Source: Nitrososphaerota archaeon
GTDB taxonomy: Archaea; Thermoproteota; Nitrososphaeria; Nitrososphaerales; UBA57
Length of the DNA: 32,000 bases
Direction: 5' to 3'
Assembly (NCBI GenBank): GCA_002713205.1
Contig: PAVW01000018.1
Span: 5,474-37,473 of the forward strand
The position numbers and the translations under genes are program-made. The notes beneath the pieces were generated by a model. That model worked only from the letters and a program-made list of their open reading frames with translations. It searched no databases and had not been told where the DNA came from. Below, in pieces: positions 4,615 to 22,716 of this stretch. Within the stretch, counting starts at the first letter, position 1; the number at the start of each line of letters is the position of its first letter.

Positions 4615-4691
4615 TTTGTCCTTATTTTTATATATTATTTAAAAATATAAAGAAATAACAAGTTTAATTGTAAAGGATATATGGTAATTAT

Positions 4692-5042
4692 ATGAAAAAA
4701 TTCACTTCAATTTTTTTAATATTTCTTGGTATATATTGGTTAATTTCTTTTATACAACAGGGTTATTTTTGGTCAATTATTCCTGCTCTGATTAGTTTTC
4801 TTACCTCTTTTTTGCTTTTATCTAATTATTTCTCAAATCTATTGGAAAAACTGTTAATTTCATCACTTGTTTATAATTTAATTTTGACTTCATATCAGGT
4901 ATACGTTTCTACATCTGTGTTGTTATTTCGTCCTCTTCCTATTGAATTCTTCATTGTCGGATTAAATGTTGTGTTCAGTATTTTATTGCTTTTTATCTTA
5001 CGACGATATTATTTGAATAAATCAAATTTTCTTACACCCTAA
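4692..5042 (+). CDS. Hypothetical small multi-pass membrane protein
   Basis: 116-aa ORF made of several long hydrophobic segments. It is divergent from polB and I recognise no family. Confidence 0.45.
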   Translation: MKKFTSIFLIFLGIYWLISFIQQGYFWSIIPALISFLTSFLLLSNYFSNLLEKLLISSLVYNLILTSYQVYVSTSVLLFRPLPIEFFIVGLNVVFSILLLFILRRYYLNKSNFLTP

Positions 5043-5115
5043 TAATCTGTTTTTTTTAAATTTTCTTGATTATTCATTTTTATATACTTTTGTACTGAAA
5101 TTATATTAATCTAAT

Positions 5116-6138
5116 ATGGATATTGAAGAAAAAATTAATCTCGTTAACAGATTTCCTACTGAGGAAATTATCCAAGAAGAAGAATTAAATCATTTATTTC
5201 AAACCAATAACGCGCCAAAACATTATCTTGGAATTGAGCTTTCTGGTATTTTACATCTTGGTAGTTTGTTAATAACTGGTTTTAAAATTAATGATTTTAT
5301 TAAAGCTGGTATAAATACTTCTGTATATCTGGCTGATTGGCACAGTTTTATTAATAATAAATTTAGTGGAAATTGGGATGAAATTCAAAAAATTATAAAA
5401 TATTATGATGAAGCTTTTAGATTTTTTTGCCCTGGTGTTAAAATAATTCGAAGCGCCGAATTATATCATAATAATGATGACTATTGGAAAAATCTTGTCC
5501 AATTTTCTAAACACATGACCTTGTCTAGAGCTGTTCGATGTTTGACAATAATGGGAAGAACAGAAAAAGATCAATTAGATCTTGCACAGTATTTGTACCC
5601 ATCAATGCAAGCTGTAGATATTAAAGAACTAGATCTTGATATTGTTCACGCTGGTACTGATCAAAGAAAAATTCATATGCTTGTTAGAGAAGTATTTCCT
5701 AAATTGAAATGGAAAGTTCCTGTCGCAGTACATCATCATCTTATTCCTGGATTACGAAGTACAGAGGGTGATACATCAACACTATTTAATAAAATGAGTA
5801 AATCGAATCCAAAAAGTTCTATCTTTATTCATGATTCAGAACCTGAAATTATGGCTAAGATTAAACTTGCTTGGGCAAAACAAGGCGTTATTGATAATAA
5901 TCCAATTCTAGAATATGCTAAATATATTATATTTCATGAATATGATTCTTTTACAATAGAAAGATCAAGTAAATTTGGTGGAGATATGTCTTTTTCTAAT
6001 TATACTGAATTAGAATTAGAATATAAAACTGGAAAAATCCATCCACTTGATTTGAAATTATCTGTCGGTCGAAAAATTAATGAAATCGTTGCTCCAATTC
6101 GTGAACATTTTTCAAATAAAAAGGAATTATTTTGTTAA
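5116..6138 (+). CDS. tyrS: Tyrosyl-tRNA synthetase, archaeal type
   Basis: 340 aa class-I aaRS with a HIGH-type element (SGILHLGS) and KMSKS (FNKMSKSNP). Colinear resemblance to the archaeal TyrRS I recall from M. jannaschii (DQRKIHML, DSEPEI..KIK.A, NPILEYAKY, KFGGD, HPLDLK, PIRE). Confidence 0.85.
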   Translation: MDIEEKINLVNRFPTEEIIQEEELNHLFQTNNAPKHYLGIELSGILHLGSLLITGFKINDFIKAGINTSVYLADWHSFINNKFSGNWDEIQKIIKYYDEAFRFFCPGVKIIRSAELYHNNDDYWKNLVQFSKHMTLSRAVRCLTIMGRTEKDQLDLAQYLYPSMQAVDIKELDLDIVHAGTDQRKIHMLVREVFPKLKWKVPVAVHHHLIPGLRSTEGDTSTLFNKMSKSNPKSSIFIHDSEPEIMAKIKLAWAKQGVIDNNPILEYAKYIIFHEYDSFTIERSSKFGGDMSFSNYTELELEYKTGKIHPLDLKLSVGRKINEIVAPIREHFSNKKELFC

Positions 6139-6175
6139 TATAAAGAATATTAATAGTTATGATTGTTATTGGTAG

Positions 6176-7402
6176 ATGTATAATATCATGGTCTTATCGC
6201 TTGATTCAATTTTTAGTCAATATCCAATATTGTTGAATATTATTCCTATTGTAATTCTTATTTTTATTTCATATGTTGCATTCAAATTTAGTCGAATTCT
6301 ACTTATTAAAATTCTTATTCCACAAATAAAAAAATCTAAAACACAACTTGACGATTCGTTTATTAAAAATAAATTATTTATGAAAATTTCTTATGTAGTT
6401 CCTATAATTATAATATATAATTTTTCATTTATTATTACTGATAATTTAACTATATCTGTCTCTTTTTTGGATCTTATAATTACTATTATTAGTATATTTA
6501 TATTTGCTCGAATTATTGATGCATTGCTATCATCAATAAATGACACTTATTCAAAAAAATATAAAAGAATGCCTTTAAAAAGTTATATTCAAATTGTTAA
6601 AATTTTTGTTTTTATCTTTGCCGTATTACTAGCGATTTCAGTATTATCGGGACGATCTCCTTGGGTATTGCTTGGAAGTTTAGGTGCTATAAGCGCAGTA
6701 TTATTATTGATTTTTCGTGATACTATACTTTCATTTATGGCAAATTTACAGATTTCATCAAATAATCTTATTCAATTAAATGATTGGGTTGAAGCACCTG
6801 CTTTTGGTGCAGATGGAGATGTCATAGAAATAGCATTGCATACGATTAAAGTTCAAAATTGGGATAAAACTATCACTGTAATCCCAACACACAAATTGAT
6901 TGATGAATCTTTTAAGAACTGGCGTGGAATGCAGGACAGTGGTGGTCGAAGAATAAAACGTGCAATTAATATTGATATGTCTTCGATAAAATTCTGCGAT
7001 GAATCTATGATTAAAAAATACATGCAAATTGACTTGTTATCTGATTATTTGAAGGGAAAAATCAATGATATTGGTAAATCAAAAAAGGGAAAAAGTATTA
7101 ATGTTGCTCTAAATTCACGACAATTAACTAACGTAGGTACTTTTCGAGAGTATATTAAAGCATATCTAAGAAATCATGCAAAAGTTAATCATGATATGAC
7201 TTTTTTAATACGTCAACTGCGCCCAACTGAAAATGGCCTTCCTTTAGAAATTTACGTGTTTAGTAATGACAATGAATGGGTTAATTATGAAAATATACAA
7301 GCTGATATATTTGATCATCTTCTTGCTTCTGTTTCTTATTTTGATTTACGTGTTTTTCAACATCCTTCGGGTTATGATTTTAATAAATTTTCAAATAATT
7401 AG
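6176..7402 (+). CDS. Mechanosensitive ion channel, MscS family (YbdG/MscM-like size)
   Basis: 408 aa. A multi-TM N-terminal half is followed by the MscS beta-domain signature (GDVIEIALHTIKVQNWDKTITVIPTHKLIDESFKNW) and an alpha/beta C-terminal domain. An alternative ATG lies at 6188. Confidence 0.8.
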   Translation: MYNIMVLSLDSIFSQYPILLNIIPIVILIFISYVAFKFSRILLIKILIPQIKKSKTQLDDSFIKNKLFMKISYVVPIIIIYNFSFIITDNLTISVSFLDLIITIISIFIFARIIDALLSSINDTYSKKYKRMPLKSYIQIVKIFVFIFAVLLAISVLSGRSPWVLLGSLGAISAVLLLIFRDTILSFMANLQISSNNLIQLNDWVEAPAFGADGDVIEIALHTIKVQNWDKTITVIPTHKLIDESFKNWRGMQDSGGRRIKRAINIDMSSIKFCDESMIKKYMQIDLLSDYLKGKINDIGKSKKGKSINVALNSRQLTNVGTFREYIKAYLRNHAKVNHDMTFLIRQLRPTENGLPLEIYVFSNDNEWVNYENIQADIFDHLLASVSYFDLRVFQHPSGYDFNKFSNN

Positions 7403-7411
7403 GTAGTTTAT

Positions 7412-8515
7412 ATGAAAAAAAATTTTTTTGTGAACCAGCCATTATTTGATAATGCCGAAATTAATGTAGTTCAAAAAATAATTCAGAATGGATTATTAAG
7501 CAGTTCTAATATAAATGGTGGTGAATTTGTACAAAAATTTGAAAAACAAATTCAAAAATATTTACATGTTAAACATGCCGTCGCTGTAAATTCTGGTACT
7601 TCTGCATTATTTGCCTCACTTCTCTCTCTTGATATAAAAACTGGTGACGAGGTAATTATTCCTTCATTTAGTTTTAGTGCTACTGCAAGTGCAGTTATTG
7701 CTACTGGTGCTAAGCCTGTTTTTACTGATATATCGCCTTCTAATTTTAATATTGATCCATCGAAAATTCAAAAAAATATTTCAACCAAAACAAAAGCTAT
7801 AATTCCTGTTCATTTATATGGATATCCTGTAAATATGCATGAAATAAATGAAATTGCTTCTTCTAATAATCTCCCAGTTATTGAAGATGGTGCACAATCT
7901 TTAGGTTCTCAGTATTATGATAAAATGTGTGGTGCATTGGGAACTATTGGGTGTACTAGTTTTTACCCCACTAAAGTAATAACTTCAGGCGAAGGAGGAA
8001 TTATATCTACTAATGACGATGAAATCTATGATAATTTATTAAAAATTCGCAATCATGGATTTAATATTAATAATCAAACTACTAGACTTGGATTAAATTT
8101 TAGAATGCCTGAAATTGAAGCTTCTATTGTTTCTATTCAATTAAATAAATTAGGTAATTTTATAAAAATTCGTCAACGTAATGCAAAATTATTATCCGAT
8201 CTTTTAGAAAATTACATTGATATACCCGATATTAATTCTAATATTGTTCCTAATTGGTATTTGTATACCGTATCAGTTCATAATAATCGTTCTTATATTG
8301 TTAATTTTCTTAAAACGCATGGCATTCATTCTGCGATTTATTATGACACGCCAATTCATCTGATGCCTTTTTATTCTCAATTAGTTGGACCTATATCTTT
8401 ACCAAATACTGAAGTTGCTGCAAAAGAAGTTTTATCTTTACCAATTCATCAAGGATTGGATATTGTTGATATTGAATTTATTGCTGATGGTTTCTTACAA
8501 GCATTAAAAAATTAA
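7412..8515 (+). CDS. DegT/DnrJ/EryC1/StrS-family PLP-dependent sugar aminotransferase
   Basis: 367 aa with family hallmarks: AVNSGTSAL, the IPVHLYG...DGAQSLG region, SFYPTKVITSGEGG (PLP-lysine context) and IRNHG. Confidence 0.8.
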   Translation: MKKNFFVNQPLFDNAEINVVQKIIQNGLLSSSNINGGEFVQKFEKQIQKYLHVKHAVAVNSGTSALFASLLSLDIKTGDEVIIPSFSFSATASAVIATGAKPVFTDISPSNFNIDPSKIQKNISTKTKAIIPVHLYGYPVNMHEINEIASSNNLPVIEDGAQSLGSQYYDKMCGALGTIGCTSFYPTKVITSGEGGIISTNDDEIYDNLLKIRNHGFNINNQTTRLGLNFRMPEIEASIVSIQLNKLGNFIKIRQRNAKLLSDLLENYIDIPDINSNIVPNWYLYTVSVHNNRSYIVNFLKTHGIHSAIYYDTPIHLMPFYSQLVGPISLPNTEVAAKEVLSLPIHQGLDIVDIEFIADGFLQALKN

Positions 8516-8534
8516 TTCGTTTCCATGATGATAT

Positions 8535-9263
8535 ATGAAAACAATTGCTATAATTATTCCAACTTATAATGAAAAGAATAATATTCAAAAATTAATTTAT
8601 GAATTATCTTCTGTATTTATTGATACTGATTATAAAATTCATGTAATAGTTATTGATGATAATAGTCCTGACGGAACTGCTAATGTTGTTAAAAATATTC
8701 CTCAAAATGATTTTTCTGTATCTCTAATTACTAGAAAAGAAAAAATGGGATTAGGTTCTGCTTATCTTGAAGGATATAAATGGTGTATAGATAATAATTT
8801 TCAATATATACTTCAAATGGATGCTGATCTATCACATCCGCCTTCTACTGCTCCAACTTTAGCATCATCTATAGAAAATGGTTATGATGTTGCTATTGCT
8901 TCCCGTTATGTCGAACATGGTGGTGTAAGTTCCTGGCCGATTCATCGTCGATTTATAAGTTTTTTTGCAAATCTTTTAGTTAAGATATTTTTGCGCACTA
9001 ATATTAATGATAATACTACTGGTTTTCGTGCCTTTAATCTTAAAACTATAAAATTACTTGTTGAATATAATATTCAATCTAAAGGTTTCTCTTATCTTAT
9101 AGAATCAATGTATTTATTTCACCTCAAAAACTTGCGTATTCAAGAAATTCCATTTATTTTTCAAGAAAGAAATACAGGACAAACAAAATTATCATATTTT
9201 GAAATAATTCGATTTTTATTATCTATTTTTCGTATTTTATTTACTGGACTTAAAAAAACATAA
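8535..9263 (+). CDS. GT2 glycosyltransferase, dolichyl/polyprenyl-phosphate hexose synthase (Dpm1-like)
   Basis: 242 aa with IIIPTYNEKNNI, VIDDNSPDGT, QMDADLSHPP and ASRY..GG, typical of the Dpm1-type GT2 catalytic domain. It lies adjacent to the sugar aminotransferase. Confidence 0.8.
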   Translation: MKTIAIIIPTYNEKNNIQKLIYELSSVFIDTDYKIHVIVIDDNSPDGTANVVKNIPQNDFSVSLITRKEKMGLGSAYLEGYKWCIDNNFQYILQMDADLSHPPSTAPTLASSIENGYDVAIASRYVEHGGVSSWPIHRRFISFFANLLVKIFLRTNINDNTTGFRAFNLKTIKLLVEYNIQSKGFSYLIESMYLFHLKNLRIQEIPFIFQERNTGQTKLSYFEIIRFLLSIFRILFTGLKKT

Positions 9264-9299
9264 TAAATGAATTCATTTTTATAATAATAAATATATGTG

Positions 9300-9497
9300 A
9301 TGAATATCTTTCATACTTTGAATTTCATGGAATCTGATAGTGGTGAATTTGGTAGTATTTTATATGAATGCGTTCGATGTTCAATTACTGTACCTCTTGA
9401 AGAACTTAATAAACTACCAGAAATCAAATGCATTTGTGGTTATAGGATATTGAAAAAGATTCGACCATCAGTTGCTAAAGTCATTAAGAGTTATTGA
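9300..9497 (+). CDS. rpoP: DNA-directed RNA polymerase subunit P (Rpo12/RPABC4)
   Basis: YECVRCSITVPLEELNKLPEIKCICGYRILKKIRPSVAKVIKSY aligns colinearly with crenarchaeal RpoP as I recall it (YRCGKC...LPGVRCPYCGYKI...RKP...VKAI). The true start may be the internal ATG at 9327. The second zinc knuckle is C-x-C here rather than C-x-x-C. Confidence 0.75.
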   Translation: MNIFHTLNFMESDSGEFGSILYECVRCSITVPLEELNKLPEIKCICGYRILKKIRPSVAKVIKSY

Positions 9498-9570
9498 TTA
9501 TTTCAATATTGTCGAAAATTCTTTATATGTTTAGTTTATTTTATAAGTTTAGAATTATTGATTTTTTATT

Positions 9571-10605
9571 ATGAAAACTAAAACGAAAGTATCAATTACA
9601 GGCTATGCTGGATATATCCCAAAATTACGTCTTCCTACATCTGAAATTGCACAAATATGGAAAGGAGGAGGATCTGGTCCAAATAAAGCTAAAAGCGTTG
9701 CAAATTTTGATGAAGATATAACAACCATGTCTGTTGAGGCTGCACGTCATGCTATTATCATGGCAAATAATCCTGATATAGGTGCTGTATTTGTTGGAAG
9801 TGAATCAAAACCATATGCAGTTAAACCTACTAGTACAATTGTAGCACAAGCGTTAGGCATTCATAAAACTTTAGCTGCTGATTTTGAATTTGCGTGTAAA
9901 GCTGGTACTGAAGCAATGCAAGTTATCACTGGATTAATTGGTTCAGGTATGATAAATAATGGAATAGCTTTAGGTGTAGACACTGCACAAGGTAGGCCCG
10001 GAGATAGTCTTGAATACACTGCTAGTAGTGGTGCTGCTGCTTTTGTTTTATCATCAGAAAATAACCATGGACTTGCATATGTTGAAGCCAGTACCTCTTT
10101 CGTTAGTGATACGGGTGATTTTTGGAGACGACAAGGTGAATCATATCCTAGACATCTTTCTCGCTTTACTGGTGATCCTGCTTATTTCTTTCATGTAGAA
10201 TCTTCTGTTCGAACTCTGCTTGAAGAAATTAATGCAAAACCTACTGATTTTACTTATGCTGTATTCCACCAACCTAATCCTAAATTTCCTCTAGAAGTAG
10301 CTAAACGTTTAGGATTTACTAAAGAACAACTCGAAGTTGGTTTGTTGAATCCTGAAATTGGTAATCCATATTCGGCAAGTTCCCCTTTAGGATTAATTGC
10401 TACATTAGATGTTGCTAAACCTGGTGATAAAATTTTACTTGCTTCATTTGGATCAGGTGCTGGAAGTGATGCTTTTTCAATAATTGTTGAAGATAATATA
10501 TTGAATAAAAGAAAGAATATTGTTCCTCTCCGTCAGCAAATCGATGATAATATAGAAATTAATTACTCTACTTACACAAAACTTCGAGGAATTCTAAATA
10601 AATAA
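9571..10605 (+). CDS. Hydroxymethylglutaryl-CoA synthase (archaeal type)
   Basis: 344-aa thiolase-fold condensing enzyme (GSESKPYAVKP, FEFACKAGT, VFHQPN, ASFGSGAGSD). It is the first gene of the conserved archaeal HMGCS / thiolase / DUF35 trio. Confidence 0.85.
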   Translation: MKTKTKVSITGYAGYIPKLRLPTSEIAQIWKGGGSGPNKAKSVANFDEDITTMSVEAARHAIIMANNPDIGAVFVGSESKPYAVKPTSTIVAQALGIHKTLAADFEFACKAGTEAMQVITGLIGSGMINNGIALGVDTAQGRPGDSLEYTASSGAAAFVLSSENNHGLAYVEASTSFVSDTGDFWRRQGESYPRHLSRFTGDPAYFFHVESSVRTLLEEINAKPTDFTYAVFHQPNPKFPLEVAKRLGFTKEQLEVGLLNPEIGNPYSASSPLGLIATLDVAKPGDKILLASFGSGAGSDAFSIIVEDNILNKRKNIVPLRQQIDDNIEINYSTYTKLRGILNK

Positions 10606-10622
10606 TTTTTTAGGTGATTTTT

Positions 10623-11786
10623 ATGTCTGTAAATATTGCAGGAACTGGCTTGACAAAAATTTCTGAACATTGGTCTAAGTCACTAATTGATCTTGCCGTT
10701 ATGTCTGGTAGACAAGCGTTATCTGAATCTAATATTTCTCCAGATATGATTATCATAGGTAATATGCTCTCATCCTATGCTTCAAATCAAGAAAATCTTG
10801 GTTCAATAATATCTGAAAAATTAGGCCTGCAAGGCACTACTACATTTAAAATTGAATCATCTTCATGTTCAGGTGCAATGGCTGTCCATGTAGCAAATAA
10901 CATTCTCAATGGCAAAGATCGTAGTACTTCTGGTATTAACTCTATTTTAGTTATTGGAGTTGAAAAAATGTCTGATCTTTCACCATCCCAATTAGTTCAA
11001 GCAATTTCTTTAGGTGAAAGTTATGAATATCTACAATTTTTTGGGGTTAGTATGACTTCTCTTTATGCCTTATTTTCTAACTTGTACATGGAACGTTATA
11101 ATATTTCTAAAAATGATTTATCTTATTTTCCAGCATTATCGCATAAGAATTCAGTTTCATGTAAACATGCTCAATTTAATCGTGAATTTTCTGTTGAATC
11201 AATATCGAGGTCTCCAATTATTTCATCACCTATTCGTTTACTTGATTGTTCGCCCATTGGAGATGGGTCTGCAGCTGTAGTTTTGACTAGATCAGAATCT
11301 AGTAATAATAACAATCCTAATACTGTTAAAATTCTTTCTTCTTCTGCATCAAATTCTCCTGTAAACTTTTTTGAAAGATCAGATATGTTAAAATTTTATT
11401 CCACTGAACAATGTATTTCTAATGCATTATCTGAATCTCAAATAAAATTATCTGATATTGATCTAATTGAAGTTCATGATGTTGTACCTGCAATTACTGC
11501 AAATATTTTGGAATCCTTAGGTTTCTCAAAACCAGGTAAGGCTGTTTTGGATGTCATTTCTGGAAAATACACTCTAGATTCTAGACCTTTTCTTTCAACA
11601 TCTGGCGGATTGAAAGCACGTGGAAATCCACTCTCAGCAACTGGAATATATCAAATTATTGAAATTACTAGACAACTTCAGAATAGATCTGATAATAATA
11701 TTAATAAAACACAAATTGGTTTATCTCAAAATATGTCTGGTATTGATTCAAATAGTGTGATTCATATTTTAGGAGTTGTAAATTAA
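10623..11786 (+). CDS. Acetyl-CoA acetyltransferase (archaeal thiolase)
   Basis: Thiolase fold (IESSSCSGAMAV nucleophile-Cys context, DCSPIGDGSAAVVL, IEVHDV, SGGLKARGNPLSATG). The ORF track opens at GTG 10614; ATG at 10623 gives MSVNIAGTG. An Asn-rich low-complexity insert is present (SESSNNNNPN). Confidence 0.8.
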   Translation: MSVNIAGTGLTKISEHWSKSLIDLAVMSGRQALSESNISPDMIIIGNMLSSYASNQENLGSIISEKLGLQGTTTFKIESSSCSGAMAVHVANNILNGKDRSTSGINSILVIGVEKMSDLSPSQLVQAISLGESYEYLQFFGVSMTSLYALFSNLYMERYNISKNDLSYFPALSHKNSVSCKHAQFNREFSVESISRSPIISSPIRLLDCSPIGDGSAAVVLTRSESSNNNNPNTVKILSSSASNSPVNFFERSDMLKFYSTEQCISNALSESQIKLSDIDLIEVHDVVPAITANILESLGFSKPGKAVLDVISGKYTLDSRPFLSTSGGLKARGNPLSATGIYQIIEITRQLQNRSDNNINKTQIGLSQNMSGIDSNSVIHILGVVN

Positions 11787-12343: not shown

Positions 12344-12700
12344 TTAAATAATTAGCGCATTCAAATTAAATAAAATAAAAATTAAGTTCAAAAATAGAAT
12401 TAAAACCATGACTGTATTTTTTTCTTCAATATATTTTCCTGAAATATTGATTATTGCATAAATTAACATACCTAATGATATATATATTAATAATAACGTG
12501 ATTTTTTCTGCAATAAAATAGTATGATAAACTTGATAAAATAAGTAATATCGACGTTGTGAATTCCGCAAAAATATGCATTTGAACTTTTACATCATGAC
12601 TATTATTCCTTGATTGATTATTGAAAAGAAAATTTACCCAATAGATAAAAATTGATATTCCTGCAATTAGACAATAAAATATTAATATATTAGAAATCAT
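12344..12700 (-). CDS. Hypothetical small membrane protein
   Basis: 118 aa with about four hydrophobic segments. It starts 5 nt downstream of the EVE-domain gene on the same strand. No family recognised. Confidence 0.45.
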   Translation of the reverse strand: MISNILIFYCLIAGISIFIYWVNFLFNNQSRNNSHDVKVQMHIFAEFTTSILLILSSLSYYFIAEKITLLLIYISLGMLIYAIINISGKYIEEKNTVMVLILFLNLIFILFNLNALII

Positions 12701-12705
12701 TATGA

Positions 12706-13113
12706 TTATTCTTCCGATAATTTAATTATATAATTCCAATATTTTTGTGATACTGGCATTACAGAAAGTCTTGGCAGTCTCACAAGTTCAAAATCTTTAA
12801 AAATACTATTTGATTTAATTTCTTTTAAACTAATGGCTCTCTTTAATCTTTTTTTAATTTTAATATCAAAAACAAGTAGTTTTTCATTATTTTGATTTGG
12901 ATCTGGATATGGTTTGGAAATTGCTTTTGCAATGCCAATTATTAACTTTTCCACACCCGAATGGTATATGAATAACTCATCTCCTTTTTTAATTTGTTTT
13001 ATATGTTTTAATGCTAAATTATTTTTTATTCCATCCCACGTTGTATTTTTTTCTTTTTCTAATATATCAAATGAATAATTTTTTGGCTCTTCTTTTAATA
13101 ACCAATAATTCAT
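12706..13113 (-). CDS. EVE-domain (PUA-like) protein
   Basis: 135 aa. N-terminal NYWLLKEEPKNYSFDIL...WDGIKNNLALKHIKQIKKGDELFIYHSG matches the EVE-domain pattern (WL.K.EP..YS...L......WDG.RN.QA......M..GD..F.YHS). Confidence 0.75.
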   Translation of the reverse strand: MNYWLLKEEPKNYSFDILEKEKNTTWDGIKNNLALKHIKQIKKGDELFIYHSGVEKLIIGIAKAISKPYPDPNQNNEKLLVFDIKIKKRLKRAISLKEIKSNSIFKDFELVRLPRLSVMPVSQKYWNYIIKLSEE

Positions 13114-15476: not shown

Positions 15477-16163
15477 TTATAATTGTGAAAATATTGATTT
15501 TATCTTCTCTTCATTATTTTTTTTAGTTATTCCGAGAATGATATTTTCTCGTTTTGATAATTCTATTGCTAAATCGTCAACCTGATCTGGTCCATGTAGT
15601 ATTACCATTCGAGGTTTTAATCGTGAAACTCTTATTGCAACTAATGGAGACCTTCCAAGTCCAACTCTGGTAAAAATTAGAACGCGTTCGGTTGTAGCTC
15701 CAAATATTTTATAAAAATCAATTCCTGATAGAAGATAAATTGTGTTTATGCTATCTAAAATTGTATATCCATATAATTTTGTTTTTAATTGATCTTCACC
15801 ATTCAATATTTTTGCATTTAATAGTGTTTTAAGTTTTAATGCTGTTAATGGTTTGTTAAATTCTCCTATTCCTATTATTGCTGAATGTTCTTCTTTTAAT
15901 AATCGATTTAATGTTTTATTATTTGTTTTATCAACTTCTACAAGTGCTTTAATATATTTTTTTATAAATATGACGCCCGGTGAACTTCTTCTTCCACTTT
16001 CATAATCACTTAGTACTGAAGGTGACATATTCATTTGTTTCGCTAAAATTATTTGTTTAATTTTTAATCTTTGTCTCCATATCTTTAACATTTGTCCTGG
16101 ATTATTATTTATTACAACATCTCCTGCAATTTTTGATATTATTTCAAGATCTGTTTGTGACAC
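15477..16163 (-). CDS. XRE-family HTH transcriptional regulator with an uncharacterised ~150-aa C-terminal domain
   Basis: Cro/C1-type HTH (LKIKQIILAKQMNMSPSVLSDYESGRRSSPG) near the N-terminus. I cannot name the C-terminal domain (…GYTILDS…ERVLIFTRVGLGRSP…MVILHGP). Apparent GTG start. It lies 45 nt downstream of herA on the same strand. Confidence 0.6.
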   Translation of the reverse strand: MSQTDLEIISKIAGDVVINNNPGQMLKIWRQRLKIKQIILAKQMNMSPSVLSDYESGRRSSPGVIFIKKYIKALVEVDKTNNKTLNRLLKEEHSAIIGIGEFNKPLTALKLKTLLNAKILNGEDQLKTKLYGYTILDSINTIYLLSGIDFYKIFGATTERVLIFTRVGLGRSPLVAIRVSRLKPRMVILHGPDQVDDLAIELSKRENIILGITKKNNEEKIKSIFSQL

Positions 16164-16208: not shown

Positions 16209-17651
16209 TTAATTAAAAAATAATTTTGTTTCGCCCATTGCATGCCATTTACTTTCTGATATTTTTACAACTACTGGTAGATCATTGACTGTTTTTCCTA
16301 AAACTAAGCAATTTTTTGATGGTAGTGTGCGCACTATTGATTTTACTGTATCTGCATCAACCATACTGGCTTTTGATACTAATTCAATATCAGTATCATT
16401 AGTAAAATTAAATAGAAAAATATTATCTGCTTGTCTATATATTCCTTGATCTATGGCATCGGGTTGATTTGTAATAAAAGTTGTAAATATTCCAAAATGT
16501 CTCATTCTTGTAATTATATCATCCCAATATGTATCTCGTAAGTATAGATGTGCTTCCTCTGCAAATAAAAATACCGGTTTAATGTCTTTTTTTTCTAATA
16601 AATTGACTAATTTCGATAAAATTATTTCTACAGTAATTCTTCGTAATAGTGGTGATGCTTCAGATAACGAAATTATAATTATATTTCCATCGGGTTGTGT
16701 ATTTAGTAATTCTTCTAATTTAATCGAATTATTGTTATCTGTTAAAATACCTGTTGATTGTAAAGTATGAAATCGTGATATTAATGCATCTCTGACAAAT
16801 TCATTGCCTTTCCAATTAAAAATATGATTTCTCAATTCATCTATATTTAATGAATTCTTCGTTTTTAATAATTTGAAAATACGTAAAAATTCTCGTAATG
16901 ACGCTCCTGGTAATTGTAATGAATGAGTTAAAATATTACATAAGCAATTTAGTTCAAGATATTGCAAGTTGAATTTTAATGATTTACCGGGAACTAATCT
17001 TGTTATTTTTCTTGATAAATTACTAGTCGTTCCATTTTTATTTTTTGTTAATCCCTTGTATTCATCATTTAAATCAAAAATAATTATTGGGGCCCCTAAT
17101 TCTGCTAAATTAGCTGCTAATAGTTTAGATAAATGTGATTTTCCAGATTCTTTTTTCCCAGTTATTATATTTAATTTTCCATCTAAAGCTTCTGCATAAA
17201 TTTTAAATATTTCATTTGATGCACCTGTTCCTAATTCTATTTCTCTTTTTCCTTCTCTTTTTGCAATTTCAAATAATTCATTATATGATATTTTTTTAAT
17301 TTTTGTATAAACTCTTGATGGCAGTAAATTATTTGAATATGTTAACGTTGAATTTTTTATCATTCCTCTGATTTTACATTTTAATATTCTTGAATCTCTA
17401 ATAAACATTGAAATATTTTCTATTTCTAATGATTCTCCTTGAATTCCTTCTAACGTAGATTCTATTACTTCGTCTCTTAAGATTTCTTCAGATAATCCTG
17501 GAATGTCAATATATGTTTCTTCATATATTTGCGCTAAAATATTTATTTTTTTTGATGTATCTTCTAACTGTAAATAATCTCCTTGATGTACTTGTTCACT
17601 TGGAGTTGATAATATTAATACTTCATTACCTGATTTTCCTAATATTTTCAT
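16209..17651 (-). CDS. herA: HerA-like FtsK/HerA-superfamily ATPase (DUF87)
   Basis: 480 aa. N-terminal barrel-like region (KILGKSGNEVLILSTP...GDYLQLED...ILAQIYE), Walker A ITGKKESGKSHL and Walker B VFLFAEEAHLYL (the HerA-type hhhh-D/E-EAH). The start ATG overlaps the upstream small ORF's stop (ATGA). Confidence 0.75.
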   Translation of the reverse strand: MKILGKSGNEVLILSTPSEQVHQGDYLQLEDTSKKINILAQIYEETYIDIPGLSEEILRDEVIESTLEGIQGESLEIENISMFIRDSRILKCKIRGMIKNSTLTYSNNLLPSRVYTKIKKISYNELFEIAKREGKREIELGTGASNEIFKIYAEALDGKLNIITGKKESGKSHLSKLLAANLAELGAPIIIFDLNDEYKGLTKNKNGTTSNLSRKITRLVPGKSLKFNLQYLELNCLCNILTHSLQLPGASLREFLRIFKLLKTKNSLNIDELRNHIFNWKGNEFVRDALISRFHTLQSTGILTDNNNSIKLEELLNTQPDGNIIIISLSEASPLLRRITVEIILSKLVNLLEKKDIKPVFLFAEEAHLYLRDTYWDDIITRMRHFGIFTTFITNQPDAIDQGIYRQADNIFLFNFTNDTDIELVSKASMVDADTVKSIVRTLPSKNCLVLGKTVNDLPVVVKISESKWHAMGETKLFFN

Positions 17652-17904: not shown

Positions 17905-18915
17905 TCAATTTTTATTTTTTAATGTCCAATACCATCTAAGTATTGTATTTCGTGTATTTTCACTTGGTATTTCTTTTAATGAAAAATTTTTACATAAATA
18001 GCTTTTAAAGCATACATCTTCAAAATTTGTAAATATTGATATATTATGCGCTAATATTAATGATTCAGGATATCCTCTATAATATGAATCGTTATAACTT
18101 AAATAACCTAATTCAAATTTTATATTTTTTGCTATACTTTCCGTTTTAAATACTAATCCATTATCTCTCATTTTTAATAACATTAATTCTTTTTTTATGA
18201 TGTTTTTTTTATTTGATTTTATTCTGAATATAAATGGTGATCCTTTTATTGATTTTAATTTAGGAAATGTAAAAATTATTGATTTATCTTTTGTTGTTTT
18301 TGATATTCCAATTAAACTATTATTATTTTCATTTGCTTTTTTTAATATTATATCTCCATCTTGGGCTGAAGTAATAATATTTAATGTTCCATCAACTAAT
18401 ATTATGCAATTATTTAACGAATTTGATAATTCTTTAATTAAGATTTTTTCTAATGTATTTCTAATATGTGATTCAATTATAGATGAATTATTATTAAATT
18501 GACTTAATTTAATAAATTGAAATTGTGTTAATGTCTTTTCATTATAATAATTTAAAAATGGTCCAAATTGTAAATATTTTATTGGTTTTCCATTTAATGA
18601 TAAAACAGCAGCTACTCTCGAAGCATAAATTGTTCCACTATCTAAATCATATATTGGAATACATGATGAATCGATTGCAACAATTAATTTTTTTTCTTTT
18701 ATTGTTTTAACATGTTCTATATTGAAATTATGTGAATTGGTATGTTCTATTATTGGTTGACGATGAGCAGAGGAGCTGAAAATAACGTTTTTCCCCGTTA
18801 TTTCCTTCATATTGAACTTTATTTTATTATTAATTTCTTTATTTATTTTATCAATGATTAAGGTTGGTTCGTTTTTTAAAAAATTTATTTGTATATTGTT
18901 TAATTGCGTGGCCAT
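17905..18915 (-). CDS. nurA: NurA-like nuclease (RNase-H-like fold)
   Basis: Order and spacing of NurA-type catalytic elements: LIVAIDSS (Asp 1), …IIESHIRNTLEKIL… (Glu), CIILVDGTLN (Asp 2) and the C-terminal GYPESLILAHNISIF (YP..L..AH). It is operonic with herA. I place the start at ATG 18915 (M31 of the track ORF), because the longer version would overlap the divergent gene and the operator region. Confidence 0.65.
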   Translation of the reverse strand: MATQLNNIQINFLKNEPTLIIDKINKEINNKIKFNMKEITGKNVIFSSSAHRQPIIEHTNSHNFNIEHVKTIKEKKLIVAIDSSCIPIYDLDSGTIYASRVAAVLSLNGKPIKYLQFGPFLNYYNEKTLTQFQFIKLSQFNNNSSIIESHIRNTLEKILIKELSNSLNNCIILVDGTLNIITSAQDGDIILKKANENNNSLIGISKTTKDKSIIFTFPKLKSIKGSPFIFRIKSNKKNIIKKELMLLKMRDNGLVFKTESIAKNIKFELGYLSYNDSYYRGYPESLILAHNISIFTNFEDVCFKSYLCKNFSLKEIPSENTRNTILRWYWTLKNKN

Positions 18916-18964
18916 GTTGAACAACATGAATAAGAAACATTCAAATATAAATGTTGTGCAACAT
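18913..18964. promoter_or_regulatory. Divergent promoter/operator region: two ATGTTG-N2-CAACAT palindromes flanking a TATA-like box
   Basis: CATGTTG-aa-CAACATG lies at 18913-18928 and overlaps the nurA ATG. ATGTTG-tg-CAACAT lies at 18951-18964. An extra inverted pair, AACATT (18936-41) and AATGTT (18950-55), brackets caaatata. AAATATAAA at 18943-18951 is placed to act as a TATA box for either direction. Confidence 0.45.
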
Positions 18965-18989: not shown

Positions 18990-19436
18990 TTGGATTTAGA
19001 AACAAATAAAGTTACTATAAAATTAAAACGAGGAAGTTGGGAAGTTGAAATCACTTGCCCAGAGGATAAAGTAAAACAAATTGTCGAAAATGTATTAAGT
19101 GGCTTGGATAAGGACAAATCTATTAAACAGGAAATTCAAGATCTTCCAGCTGTTCATTCTATGACCAATGATGAAATTATGAAAGCCGACGTAGTAACAA
19201 AATCCAAAGATCATGTTATTTGTAGGGATTTAATTCAATTATTATGGCAGGAAAATTGGTTTCAAACTGAAAAAAATCTTTCTAATGTTTATGAGGAATT
19301 GGCCAGACGTGGTTATCATTATGATAAAACTAGTATATCGCATTCATTAGCTGATTTAGTTAGAGAAACTACTTTAACACGTGTTGGTTCTATAAGAAAT
19401 TATCGATATATACAAAAAAGACCTCCATCACCATAA
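18990..19436 (+). CDS. Uncharacterised small protein, paralog 1: N-terminal beta-beta-alpha-like module + C-terminal winged helix
   Basis: 148 aa with an apparent TTG start (no in-frame ATG near the N-terminus). The N-terminus is KVTIKLKRGSWEVEITCPEDKVKQIVENVL. The C-terminal wHTH-like pattern is LIQLLWQ…LSNVYEELARRGYHYDKTSISHSLADLVRETTLTRVGSIRNYRYI. Confidence 0.6.
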   Translation: MDLETNKVTIKLKRGSWEVEITCPEDKVKQIVENVLSGLDKDKSIKQEIQDLPAVHSMTNDEIMKADVVTKSKDHVICRDLIQLLWQENWFQTEKNLSNVYEELARRGYHYDKTSISHSLADLVRETTLTRVGSIRNYRYIQKRPPSP

Positions 19437-19468
19437 AAGTATATTAATTTATTTTAGAAATATATAGT

Positions 19469-19960
19469 ATGAAAGAATCTCCTATTAAAATAAAACTTCA
19501 TATATCTAATGCTGAAATTGAATTAGAATGTGCTTTAGAAGAAATGTCTGAAGTCCTCAAATTTATTCCTGAATTAATTGGTATTCTTTCTAATAATGTA
19601 AAAAGTATTCCAAAATCGTTAACACCTGTTTTAAACAAGTCTGATATTAGTGATGATCTTCCTGATATTTCTGTTAGTAGATCAGATTCTCTAACTGCCA
19701 TTTTAATTAAATTGTTTAGTAGTTCGTGGTCATCTAGTCCAAAAAAATTAAATGAAATTCGCGAAGCTCTTAACTCTTATGGACTAATATATCCGAAACA
19801 ATCCGTTGCAGTAACTCTTTTACGAATGGCTCAGTCTGGTAAATTACGACGATTTAAAAGTAGTAGCGGTGAATATGTTTATACTCCATCAACTTCTCTT
19901 TTTTCAACTTCTAATTCATTAGTCTCTAATTCATTAAATATTTCATCTAAATCAGCATGA
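19469..19960 (+). CDS. Uncharacterised small protein, paralog 2: same N-module + winged helix, Ser-rich tail
   Basis: 163 aa. The N-terminus is PIKIKLHISNAEIELECALEEMSEVLKFIPEL. The C-terminal part LIKLFSSSW…KKLNEIREALNSYGLIYPKQSVAVTLLRMAQSGKLRRFKSSSGEYVYT aligns position-for-position with paralog 1 (W, K.L, E.L, G..Y.K.S, L, L.R, S, Y.Y). Confidence 0.6.
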   Translation: MKESPIKIKLHISNAEIELECALEEMSEVLKFIPELIGILSNNVKSIPKSLTPVLNKSDISDDLPDISVSRSDSLTAILIKLFSSSWSSSPKKLNEIREALNSYGLIYPKQSVAVTLLRMAQSGKLRRFKSSSGEYVYTPSTSLFSTSNSLVSNSLNISSKSA

Positions 19961-19967
19961 TTATGGA

Positions 19968-20468
19968 ATGATAAAATTGACTGATATTATTGTTTCAATA
20001 ACATTTGAAGACACAAAAATTGATTTTAAAGGAGAACCTAATGATGTTCTAGTTTCAATAAATGAATTCTTTTTAAAACAAATTCCAAATCTTGATTTAG
20101 CTAAAAAAATTTCTGTAAATTATTCATTGGAACAATTAATATCTATTTTTTCTGAATATATCAAATTAACTCCAGAAGGTCCTAGAATCTGGATAGAAAA
20201 TAAGAAATTAAGTGATAGGGAGAAAATATGTTTGCAATTAATTGCTTTTCATATAGGTTATTTGGCTAAAAATTCAAATAATTCACAAATTAGTATGAAT
20301 ATTATTTCAAATCTTACAGGTCTTAACTCTAAATCAATTAGTTCCAGATTAAGTGAATTACAAAAATTGGGTTATGTCAAAAAACATAATATTGATAATA
20401 AAATTTTATTTCAAATAACAACACAAGGTATTTATTGGTTTGAACAAATTATTATTAAAAAAGTATGA
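19968..20468 (+). CDS. Uncharacterised small protein, paralog 3: same N-module + winged helix
   Basis: 166 aa. The N-terminus is DIIVSITFEDTKIDFKGEPNDVLVSINEFFLKQI. The C-terminal wHTH-like segment is ISNLTGLNSKSISSRLSELQKLGYVKKHNIDNKILFQITTQG. It starts 7 nt after paralog 2. Confidence 0.6.
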   Translation: MIKLTDIIVSITFEDTKIDFKGEPNDVLVSINEFFLKQIPNLDLAKKISVNYSLEQLISIFSEYIKLTPEGPRIWIENKKLSDREKICLQLIAFHIGYLAKNSNNSQISMNIISNLTGLNSKSISSRLSELQKLGYVKKHNIDNKILFQITTQGIYWFEQIIIKKV

Positions 20469-20495
20469 TTATGTATTTTTAATGTGAGTTGTGTT

Positions 20496-20885
20496 ATGAA
20501 AAAATTAACTATAGTTTTGAGTTTATTAACAATATCCCTTGGTCTTTTAGGCGGACAAGCAGCTAATAATATATTTGAAGAAGTTGAAATGTTAGAAGAA
20601 CAAAATCTGAATCCAGCTAATAATGAAAATAGAGCTCCTGCTTCACCAGAATATATTGGAGCCCTTTATGACGAAGGATCTTTTGTTGCATTTTTTAGCC
20701 GAGCTTTAATATTTCTTGGTGTATTTTTCACCCTTTATGGTTTTATCGATGACTTAAAAAAACTTAAACGAAAAGATATATCAAAAAATTCTGAGAATAC
20801 AGTAAAACTTGAAGAAACATATGAAGAATTTAAACTAAGAAAGAAAAAATTTCGAGAAGCGCAGCGAAAACAAGTTTCTAATTAA
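20496..20885 (+). CDS. Small membrane protein (N-terminal signal/TM, second TM, Lys/Arg-rich C-tail)
   Basis: MKKLTIVLSLLTISLGLLGG is a hydrophobic N-terminus and ALIFLGVFFTLYGFI is a second TM, followed by a charged tail (KKLKRK…KLRKKKFREAQRK). It is the last gene of the plus-strand run. The track opens at GTG 20484; ATG is at 20496. Confidence 0.5.
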   Translation: MKKLTIVLSLLTISLGLLGGQAANNIFEEVEMLEEQNLNPANNENRAPASPEYIGALYDEGSFVAFFSRALIFLGVFFTLYGFIDDLKKLKRKDISKNSENTVKLEETYEEFKLRKKKFREAQRKQVSN

Positions 20886-20889
20886 ATAT

Positions 20890-22716
20890 TTATTTCGAAT
20901 CTGTAACAATTATATTTTTTTGTTGTACTAATGCTTTTATTATATTCTTTCCTAAATCTGAAGATTTTGATACTCGAATTTTATTTTTTTTACCAACTGT
21001 AGCTGAAAAAATATATTCATTGTTTATATATACATTTAGTTTTTTACTATGTAATTTTCTATTAAATAAAAAATCTAATGAATTTCCTGATTCATGAATA
21101 GTATGATTAATTTTTTTTCCTAATGAATTATCAAACGGTAATACATCTATACTGATTCCTAATTGCGCTTCTATTTTGTTTATTTCTGATCCTCCTTTAC
21201 CTATTATTCTTGGAATAAATGATTTATCTATTTTTACAATTGCATGTGATGCTGATGTGAATTTAATTTCTGCTTGTGTGTTATAATCATTAAAAATATT
21301 CTGTAATTCTTTTTTCACAAATTTTATTTTACTAGTTTCTTTTTCTTCTAATAACGCAACCGGTATGATAATATTTTCATCTCCATATGTATAAATCTCA
21401 TATTCCAGTTTTTCATTTTCAAAATCTCGAATTTCTACAACTGGCCTTGTTAAATCTCTTTCAGTCATTCCAGTTGGAACTTTCATAACTAATTCTAATT
21501 GATAAATTTTTGAAATATCTCCATTATTTATGAATATTACAGTATCGATTATGTTACATATCATGCCTATTTCTATACGTCCGATGAATCTTTGGATAGA
21601 ATTAACAGGATTACTTGCATGAACAACACCTATCATTCCTACTCCTGAAAGGCGAAGATCTGAAAAAATCATAAAATCTTTTGATTTTCTAACTTCATCA
21701 AATACAGTATAATCTGGTCTTACTAATAATAGTACTTCTGCTGTTTTTTCAAAATCACCTTCTAATGGCCCGTATTGTGAAATTTCTGAATCAACTTGTA
21801 AATCTTTTGGAGATTCTATTGTTTTTACAATTTTATTTTTTTTTGAATAAAATTCAGCTAAACTTGATGCAAATGTGCTTTTACCTGAACCAGGAGGTCC
21901 TGATACCAAAATTCCTTCTGCTGCTGATTCAATTCTATTTTGTAATTTTGGTGAAATTGTATAGTCATCTAGTTTGAGTTTTTTTATTGGTTTTATTATA
22001 GTTACTTCTATTTTATCTGAAAATGGAGGATTTGTAATAGCAATTCTAAATGAATCAAGTTGAATTACTTTTGCACCATTCTTCATTATTGGCCTATCAA
22101 CTTTTTTTGCAATTCTACTAAATTCTTCAATTTCTTTAATAATTTTTTCTATTTCTTCTTTGGTAACTGAATTACCTATCGATTTCATTTTTACTTTACC
22201 TGGTTTTCCTATTTTAATTCGCACAGGAATTCCTTCAGTTATATGAACACTTGTTGTATTCTTTTCAAAAAATTTTAAAAATTTTAATTCATTTCTATCG
22301 ATTTTAGTTTCTATATATTTGACTTCTGCTCCTAATACTTCTGCAACAATTGCTTGTACATAATCTCCTGTATACAATAATGCTTTGTTTTTTATTGCTT
22401 CATCTCTAATTATTCCATCAATTCTTCCACTTTTTGCTAATTTAATATCTTCTAATGATGGTTTTGAACCTAAATATTTGAATATAATTTTTTTCTGATC
22501 TGATAATTTTCTAAGTTTTTTTAATTCTTCTAAACCTAAAAATCCCACTTCTCTATGTTTTGATGCTTGTGATTGTAATTCATCTAATACGGCTATTGGA
22601 ATTATAATTTCACAGTTTTTTAATTCTTTTTTATTTATATTATTTGACAGAATGCCATTAATAATTATACTTGTATCCGGCACAATTTTAATTTTTTTAG
22701 TTTTATTTTTTACCAA
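20890..22716 (-). CDS. PIN-domain / P-loop ATPase / KH-domain protein (archaeal PilT-like ATPase, COG1855-type)
   Basis: 608 aa with an N-terminal PIN (KIVPDTSIIINGIL…DELQ), a central P-loop (LVSGPPGSGKSTFA) and a C-terminal KH motif (IIGKGGSEINKIE). Apparent TTG start. Confidence 0.8.
   Translation of the reverse strand: MVKNKTKKIKIVPDTSIIINGILSNNINKKELKNCEIIIPIAVLDELQSQASKHREVGFLGLEELKKLRKLSDQKKIIFKYLGSKPSLEDIKLAKSGRIDGIIRDEAIKNKALLYTGDYVQAIVAEVLGAEVKYIETKIDRNELKFLKFFEKNTTSVHITEGIPVRIKIGKPGKVKMKSIGNSVTKEEIEKIIKEIEEFSRIAKKVDRPIMKNGAKVIQLDSFRIAITNPPFSDKIEVTIIKPIKKLKLDDYTISPKLQNRIESAAEGILVSGPPGSGKSTFASSLAEFYSKKNKIVKTIESPKDLQVDSEISQYGPLEGDFEKTAEVLLLVRPDYTVFDEVRKSKDFMIFSDLRLSGVGMIGVVHASNPVNSIQRFIGRIEIGMICNIIDTVIFINNGDISKIYQLELVMKVPTGMTERDLTRPVVEIRDFENEKLEYEIYTYGDENIIIPVALLEEKETSKIKFVKKELQNIFNDYNTQAEIKFTSASHAIVKIDKSFIPRIIGKGGSEINKIEAQLGISIDVLPFDNSLGKKINHTIHESGNSLDFLFNRKLHSKKLNVYINNEYIFSATVGKKNKIRVSKSSDLGKNIIKALVQQKNIIVTDSK

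Follow-up and report, generated by a model that had tools for sequence, protein, structure and literature searches.

A 32,000-nucleotide stretch of core chromosome from a marine member of the Nitrososphaerota (Thaumarchaeota), hereafter called the window, carries three adjacent genes (A, B, and C) whose products are diverged paralogs of one small protein architecture, in which a short N-terminal module (the N-module) is joined to a C-terminal winged helix. Sequence comparisons place these products in a superfamily of small, probably DNA-binding archaeal proteins that has not been described before and has two ancient branches, termed here AB-type and C-type. Gene A is divergent from the gene for the NurA nuclease, which is followed by the gene for a HerA-type ATPase, and the promoter region between nurA and A contains a pair of TGTTG-NN-CAACA palindromes that is conserved across the phylum. 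We favor, at a probability of about one-half, a composite reading in which A would dimerize or oligomerize through the N-module, bind this candidate operator, and co-repress nurA-herA and itself, with B and C acting alongside.

Intact, full-length orthologs of each of the three proteins are present at 79-100% identity on many contigs, and thus A, B, and C are conserved coding genes rather than chance open reading frames (ORFs). More distant orthologs are found throughout the Nitrososphaerota, including Nitrosocaldus and the Conexivisphaerales. Wherever names exist, the three ortholog families are confined to this phylum, and nearly all of their members are annotated as hypothetical. Among the 300 homologs of A, none has a precomputed Pfam domain, and the same is true of the homologs of B. 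Close protein matches of all three come from TARA and other marine metagenomes, with the named ones belonging to metagenome-assembled genomes of Thaumarchaeota or Nitrososphaerales.

The shared architecture is apparent in AlphaFold2 models computed from family alignments. The model of A (predicted local distance difference test score [pLDDT] of 72) has strands E7-14 and E17-24 paired as a hairpin, helix H25-43, a disordered linker at residues 42-72, and a winged helix at residues 78-142. The model of C (pLDDT 84) has a hairpin (E7-13 and E16-22), helix H24-38, a helical and hairpin insert, a winged helix at residues 83-150, and a terminal helix. We infer a fold like that of A for B from its full-length homology to A. 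The N-module spans about 38 residues, and its pattern (h+h+h+xGxxEhEhEG) has alternating basic residues on the first strand and acidic ones on the second. The recognition helix of A, Y[HN]YD[RK]T[AS][VI]SH, scarcely varies among 80 species.

Comparison of family profiles with hhalign aligned A and B over 126 columns with a probability of 97.8% and an E value of 7.7e-13, and proteins of the A family are matched by the hidden Markov model of the B family at 1e-5 to 1e-11. When only close family members were used, the matches of C to A and to B were not significant (E values of 0.002 and 0.012). After divergent members had been added, the AB superfamily matched the C family with a probability of 92.9% and an E value of 3.8e-7 over 130 columns. 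Because this match takes in both the N-module and the winged helix, the three proteins are diverged paralogs with one architecture; by these alignments, A and B are clear paralogs and C is related to both at the superfamily level only. A preliminary description of this DNA had proposed three ORFs at these positions, had read them as diverged paralogs sharing an N-module, a linker, and a winged helix, had aligned the first two with each other, and had matched the N-module to no known domain. Each of these points is borne out, the last by Pfam, NCBIfam, Protein Data Bank (PDB) profile, and Foldseek searches that were all negative for the N-module.

The nurA/A intergenic region is 75 base pairs (bp) long and includes two copies of TGTTG-NN-CAACA (P1a and P1b in Table 1) that lie 37 bp apart and flank an AT-rich, TATA-like block. 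P1a abuts and overlaps the nurA ATG (18915-18913, minus strand), and this position is kept in other species. That ATG (M-A-T-Q-L-N) is likely the true nurA start because the species loci keep the N-terminus M-x-T-Q-L-N. Other loci have an equivalent ATATAAA/TATATTAA block between both sites, and the TTCAAATATAAATG block of the window presumably has a promoter function.

The exact sequence TGTTGNNCAACA occurs only twice in the window, both times in the nurA/A intergenic region. Our comparison set consists of 80 species-level loci or genomes comprising 799,134 nucleotides in total, in which 70 exact copies are distributed over 56 loci, every one of them 51-220 nucleotides upstream of A, whereas shuffled sequences yielded a mean of 0.58 copies and a maximum of 3. 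When up to one mismatch is permitted, exactly two sites are present in 55 of 70 upstream regions, and the spacing is 37-38 bp in 47 of the 61 regions with two sites. The site is present, too, in the more distant, GC-rich locus L088. The palindromes at 18913-18964, which the preliminary description had put forward as DNA-binding targets, are real, and they are the most informative feature of the locus.

A further palindrome, P2, overlaps P1b. Marine relatives have TGTGCAAGATGCACA in the same place, and the variants TGCGCAACATGCGCA, TGTGCAAGATGCACA, and TGTTCAACATGAACA are kept at this position in other lineages. Nitrososphaera loci have CAACA-like half-sites in a run with a period of approximately 10 bp downstream. 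P2 or the half-site run could be the site for a second paralog. The only “terminator-like” match in the window is P2 itself, and Rfam and tRNA scans of the window gave no matches.

Among the family members, A is the only one that always accompanies the site, which is found in loci without B (Nitrososphaera) as well as in loci that have no C next to A (L033 and L077). Because of this constant association, the near-invariance of its recognition helix, and an operator geometry that is the same as that of the CopY/BlaI type, A is the best candidate for the protein that binds P1, on what is circumstantial evidence. Archaeal repressors usually act at positions such as those of the two sites, on either side of the TATA block and over transcription start regions. 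The preliminary description had argued against redundant repressors, a view that is contradicted for A by the phylum-wide conservation of its two-site promoter and by a winged helix that is nearest to the BlaI/MecI/CopY repressor type.

The linkage to NurA and HerA is strong and recurs: both genes are divergently upstream of A in 57 of the 64 loci with enough flanking sequence, and the linkage is also evident in L081, L086/L087, L088, and L091, for which gene calls were made independently. The HTH_3 (XRE-type) gene that ends the nurA-herA string in the window is likewise kept after HerA in many loci. Six of the marine relatives that share the tandem gene order of the window are without nurA-herA at this site. 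Marine loci L002, L004, and L006-L010 lack the pair here, yet they carry one-mismatch versions of both operator sites. Their promoter faces a small ORF (approximately 89 amino acids), behind which the HTH_3 regulator gene lies about 300 bp from the same promoter.

Gene order around A varies over the phylum. In 30 of the 80 loci, A is followed by C and B on the opposite strand, and the full order is then HTH_3, HerA, and NurA on the minus strand, A on the plus strand, and C, B, gatE, and gatD on the minus strand. An oppositely oriented C alone follows A in another 38 loci, 33 of which have a flank long enough to have shown B; an oppositely oriented B alone follows it in one locus, and A stands alone in four. 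The independent gene calls for L081 gave gatD, gatE, B, and C, with A next on the other strand and NurA and HerA after it. The tandem arrangement of the window, with all three genes on one strand, recurs in only 7 loci, all from one marine clade. Because the order with inverted C and B is widespread and the tandem is confined to this clade, the tandem is a derived inversion and not the original state, contrary to the history of tandem triplication proposed in the preliminary description.

Whether orthologous loci always keep all three copies had also been raised. Those copies that are present do remain neighbors through inversion and rearrangement across the phylum, but the full set is not always retained. 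The number of A/B/C-type genes per locus ranges from two to six; a large soil clade can do without B at this locus, and A and C lack an adjacent B in 38 of the loci. In the 30 loci with inverted C and B, A is on its own divergent promoter and B and C are at the tail of gatD-gatE; most lineages transcribe A apart from B-C, with B directly 3' of gatE and ahead of C. In most non-marine lineages (L011, L016, L057, L081, L090, and others), B and C are on the same strand as, and directly after, gatD-gatE, which encode the archaeal Glu-tRNA(Gln) amidotransferase. The gaps between gatD-gatE and B-C are tiny and some gene ends overlap, which suggests co-transcription.

According to the reading that we favor, A would dimerize or oligomerize through its N-module and bind both palindromes that flank the TATA block shared by the divergent nurA/A promoter. 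One palindrome would thereby cover the nurA start and the other would be occupied between the TATA block and the start of A, such that A bound at both sites could repress its own gene jointly with nurA-herA. B and C probably act as partners of A on the same NurA-HerA recombination module, possibly in AB-type:C-type hetero-oligomers assembled via their homologous N-modules.

Several observations weigh against this reading. The HTH_3 protein, whose gene belongs to the nurA-herA string, is just as local a candidate for binding the operator. The marine relatives keep A, B, C, and the operator without adjacent nurA-herA, and thus the target cannot be nurA-herA alone. No additional P1 sites turned up in the flanks of the 80 loci. 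Covariation between the recognition helix of A and operator variants was uninformative: since both are invariant, no covariation ties A to the operator. Finally, a simple local repressor does not explain the presence of three conserved paralogs, the gatD-gatE-B-C arrangement, or fusions of the family module to ATPases, which are described below.

The paralogs and the fusions are better accommodated if A, B, and C serve the NurA-HerA end-resection machine as DNA-binding accessory or adaptor subunits. The proteins would be in-trans counterparts of the winged-helix gamma domain of FtsK or of a small terminase for a HerA/FtsK-type pump, and binding to the promoter palindromes would be merely autoregulatory, as for the plasmid centromere binders AspA and ParR, or would be the work of another factor. 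We consider this alternative possible but doubtful. Indirect support for an interaction comes from two HerA/FtsK-type ATPases, P0438 and P0390 (L083 6001-7500), that have the family module fused at the C-terminus; P0438 matches Pfam DUF87 (9.6e-10) and the Sulfolobus HerA structure 4d2i. However, no more than these two fusions were found. Both stand closer to packaging ATPases than to cellular HerA (each matches the phage packaging-ATPase family phrog_2666), and at least one, P0390, is in a mobile-element-like context of many small unannotated ORFs.

Operon structure also favors an adaptor role in some lineages. In L086/L087, a single co-directional operon with overlapping gene ends encodes two C-like proteins (189 and 170 amino acids; C and C'), an AB-like protein (149 amino acids), NurA, and HerA. 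Adjacency to recombination genes is recurrent: in the low-GC locus L085 (4313-6372), the gene for the Holliday-junction resolvase Hjc is divergent from an A-like gene, after which come three tandem, truncated A-type winged-helix ORFs (104, 82, and 116 amino acids), and a PINA-like gene is adjacent in the window and in marine loci. Moreover, the existence of several conserved paralogs is more in keeping with an assembly of multiple subunits than with one local repressor, and the winged helix of C superposes best on the centromere binder AspA. Against this, the marine relatives keep A-B-C without adjacent nurA-herA, and B and C are usually transcribed with gatD-gatE rather than with nurA-herA. 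An adaptor role is therefore superior to co-repression by A with respect to the fusions, the L086 operon, and the multiplicity of paralogs, and does worse with the gatD-gatE-B-C arrangement and the marine genomes. In a more far-reaching version that we regard as rather unlikely, the superfamily would be an unrecognized DNA-recognition part of archaeal NurA-HerA, in which a hetero-oligomeric adaptor of AB-type and C-type proteins, assembled through their N-modules, would dock on HerA and guide or gate the entry of DNA, again as an in-trans counterpart of the FtsK gamma domain or a small terminase, with the TGTTG-NN-CAACA pair serving autoregulation.

It is improbable, in our estimation, that a different regulator, most plausibly the HTH_3 protein, uses the palindromes as its operator and that A, B, and C are small chromatin or transcription proteins of a general kind, adjacent through conserved synteny only. 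The position of the HTH_3 gene is compatible with this proposal, both after HerA and near the promoter where nurA-herA is missing. The A/B/C family is also large and diversified: a HMMER search with the A+B profile retrieved 1517 representatives at E<=1e-3, of which 244 reach E<=1e-10, and some members are in islands with no repair genes nearby (L092/L093, with an integrase-like ORF in L092). Nevertheless, Nitrososphaera-type loci have the operator and A but no adjacent HTH_3 gene, and the operator always occupies the promoter of A, where one of its sites falls between the TATA block and the start of A. The linkage of A to NurA-HerA also recurs in lineages where all other flanks are different. 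In L088, for example, HerA and NurA on the minus strand are followed by A-like and C-like genes and then by those for fibrillarin and Nop5, and the outer flanks differ.

The preliminary description had further suggested that the three proteins possibly form a heterotrimeric DNA-binding assembly. An obligate 1:1:1 complex kept since an old tandem triplication would be in keeping with the homologous N-module in all three proteins, which could mediate hetero-association, with their adjacency across the phylum, and with the three members beside NurA-HerA in L086. However, B is often missing next to A and C, A is transcribed apart from B-C in most lineages, and composition varies by lineage, from C, C', and AB in L086 to six members in L091. 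The latter locus (4535-10933 of a 2.2-Mb metagenomic contig) has three AB-type and three C-type paralogs beside NurA-HerA and 2 kb from gatD-gatE, in the order AB, C, C, AB, an unrelated 286-amino-acid ORF, C, and then A on the opposite strand. Because paralog sets vary and because the two-fold symmetric sites suit dimers rather than a trimer, we judge a fixed trimer to be improbable. Hetero-oligomerization through the shared N-module is plausible all the same, and the recurring AB:C pairing in L091 hints at heterodimeric units. In L090, gatE is followed by one B-like and one C-like gene. A reading of the locus as a defense system was rejected because the locus is core and syntenic across the phylum and because PADLOC matches HerA alone.

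Table 1. Positions of genes and candidate regulatory elements in the window around A, B, and C.
Feature	Position	Strand	Description
HTH_3 (XRE-type) protein gene	15477..16163	-	Pfam HTH_3 E 2e-7; last gene of the nurA-herA string
HerA-type ATPase gene	16209..17651	-	Downstream of nurA; Pfam DUF87 E 2.6e-11; NCBIfam and PADLOC HerA models match
K/E-rich ORF, 86 amino acids	17648..17908	-	Between nurA and herA, with 4-nucleotide overlaps at both ends; system membership uncertain
NurA nuclease gene	17905..18915	-	Pfam NurA E 2.5e-6; divergent from A
Candidate operator P1a	18915..18926	.	TGTTGAACAACA; extended palindrome CATGTTGAACAACATG at 18913-18928
TATA-like block	18941..18954	.	AT-rich TTCAAATATAAATG, between P1a and P1b; read from sequence
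Candidate operator P1b	18952..18963	.	TGTTGTGCAACA; between TATA block and A start codon
Palindrome P2	18955..18969	.	TGTGCAACATGCACA; overlaps P1b
Paralog A	18990..19436	+	148 amino acids, TTG start; N-terminal beta-hairpin and helix, disordered linker, C-terminal BlaI-like winged helix
Paralog B	19469..19960	+	163 amino acids; architecture as A; homology to A
Paralog C	19968..20468	+	166 amino acids; N-module, helical and hairpin insert, MarR/ArsR-like winged helix, C-terminal helix
Two-transmembrane protein gene	20484..20885	+	133 amino acids; directly after C; weak match (E 3e-5) to 100-amino-acid membrane ORF after C in L004
PIN + ATPase + KH protein gene, PINA-like	20890-22716	-	NF053733 E 3.8e-123 (below its cut-off), PRK13764 715 bits; convergent with A-B-C

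The remaining genes around A, B, and C are listed in Table 1. The ORF between nurA and herA matches no family. Other loci, in which NurA abuts HerA, have no counterpart of this ORF; it was considered as a homolog of the small promoter ORF of the marine relatives (L004) and set aside, as there is no similarity. The two-transmembrane protein gene that comes after C may be the fourth gene of a marine-clade operon (A-B-C-D). NF053733, matched by the product of the next gene, is the model for the PINA Holliday-junction branch-migration ATPase, and a PINA-like neighbor also comes after C in marine L004 and L006-L010. The window has a GC content of about 28%, and its surrounding genes are housekeeping in nature (PolB, aminoacyl-tRNA synthetases, thermosome, CDC48, and TldD/PmbA). 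Apart from the subject of this study, an EVE-domain protein (Pfam E 1.4e-37) is encoded at 12706-13113 on the minus strand and adjoins an unannotated 118-amino-acid ORF (12344-12700).

Nitrososphaerota are globally abundant ammonia-oxidizing archaea, and the literature that we searched contains no characterized regulator or accessory factor of homologous recombination for this phylum. The nurA-herA pair at this locus is not clustered with mre11-rad50, unlike in other archaea. The locus offers a defined cis-element, namely a two-site candidate operator that is invariant across the phylum, together with a specific candidate binder. It also provides a new, small, putative oligomerization module joined to winged helices, and a genomic and fusion link between this superfamily and HerA-type DNA pumps. 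If A is confirmed as the binder, the site could be used to map a regulon for DNA damage or recombination in organisms in which genetic manipulation is difficult. Should the proteins instead prove to be subunits of NurA-HerA, the present picture of end resection in archaea would have to be altered, and an adaptor of this kind would supply a missing end-resection partner in Nitrososphaerota.

No description of the A/B/C family or of the TGTTG-NN-CAACA motif, and no experimental data on either, were found in the literature searched. The superfamily has no Pfam or NCBIfam model, although approximately 1,500 representatives, clustered at 50% identity, match its profile. Scans of Pfam, NCBIfam, PADLOC, and PHROGs gave nothing significant for A and B. 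For C, the score against Pfam HTH_24 was just above the cut-off (22.3 versus 21.9 bits), whereas those against HTH_34 (22.8 versus 27 bits, E 1e-4) and MarR_2 (14.1 versus 27) were below; the library scans otherwise returned just generic winged helix-turn-helix matches and weak matches to the winged helix of phage replication initiators. PDB profile searches with the three families gave a weak BlaI match and the winged helices of MarR and AspA, and a segment of Pyrococcus Mre11 (E 0.15) was judged to be a chance match. Foldseek searches of the PDB retrieved winged-helix domains alone, both with A (HOP2, BlaI, MecI, and Fur) and with C (MarR, ArsR, AspA, and TubR). A Foldseek search of BFVD with C likewise gave the winged helix alone, and an IMG/VR scan with the A+B profile identified no viral relatives. 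None of the Pfam, NCBIfam, PDB, or Foldseek matches to the three proteins thus reaches beyond a generic winged helix. The N-module has no profile or fold match to AbrB/SpoVT, the PRC barrel, or the OB fold. A profile of the N-module only, searched against the PDB, found de novo designed proteins, because of the alternating basic and acidic pattern of its strands, and otherwise insignificant matches.

Among known proteins, Hop2 (TBPIP) is the top Foldseek match for the winged helix of A (2mh2, template modeling [TM] score of 0.78, E 0.026), and it acts in recombination too. One relative matches Pfam TBPIP (PF07106) with an E value of 0.0021 and 18.4 bits, below the 22.8 cut-off. In Hop2, unlike A, the winged helix is N-terminal and coiled coils come after it. 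All scores are below threshold, and the likeness is that of a generic winged helix. Lsr2 and H-NS have a small N-terminal oligomerization domain (a beta-hairpin and helix in Lsr2), a flexible linker, and a C-terminal DNA-binding domain, an organization like that of A, B, and C. However, the latter gave no sequence or fold match to these proteins, their putative DNA-binding domain is of the winged-helix type, and the conserved candidate target, instead of being AT-rich DNA, is one particular palindrome.

The winged helix of C superposes on MarR, ArsR, and HlyU structures, but C has a beta-hairpin-helix module and a helical insert in place of the N- and C-terminal helices that form the MarR dimer interface, and full-length superposition on MarR gives a root mean square deviation (rmsd) of approximately 14-15 Å. 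The best local structural match for this domain is AspA of pNOB8 (TM score of 0.78, rmsd of 2.6). AspA and TubR are small, oligomerizing winged-helix proteins that bind palindromes in their own promoters and recruit an NTPase machine. They lack the N-module of A, B, and C, and the A/B/C locus differs from their systems in being chromosomal, kept phylum-wide, and without a ParA, ParB, or TubZ partner.

BlaI, MecI, and CopY are the nearest relatives of the AB-type winged helix in both sequence and structure. Among the AB-type relatives scanned, 17 of 33 and 12 of 39 match Pfam Penicillinase_R (PF03965) at E<=0.05, with a best E value of 2.4e-6, whereas A and B of the window do not reach the gathering score of this family (22.6 bits) and have no match to it at E<=1. 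These matches thus indicate a related winged helix and not membership in Penicillinase_R. The domain order is reversed: BlaI, MecI, and CopY have an N-terminal winged helix and then a helical dimerization domain, whereas the winged helix of A is C-terminal and its other domain is the beta-hairpin and helix. No sensor protease of the BlaR/MecR type is near A, B, or C, and the half-site sequence of TGTTG-NN-CAACA differs from that of the BlaI/MecI/CopY operators. BlaI, MecI, and CopY are small dimeric repressors with an inter-domain linker, which A has as well, and they act at palindromes with a 2-bp spacer in their own promoters; the promoter of A carries the conserved TGTTG-NN-CAACA pair as its candidate operator. 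The CopY operator given in one report, TACANNTGTA (PMC7253601), has the same 2-bp-spacer geometry as TGTTG-NN-CAACA.

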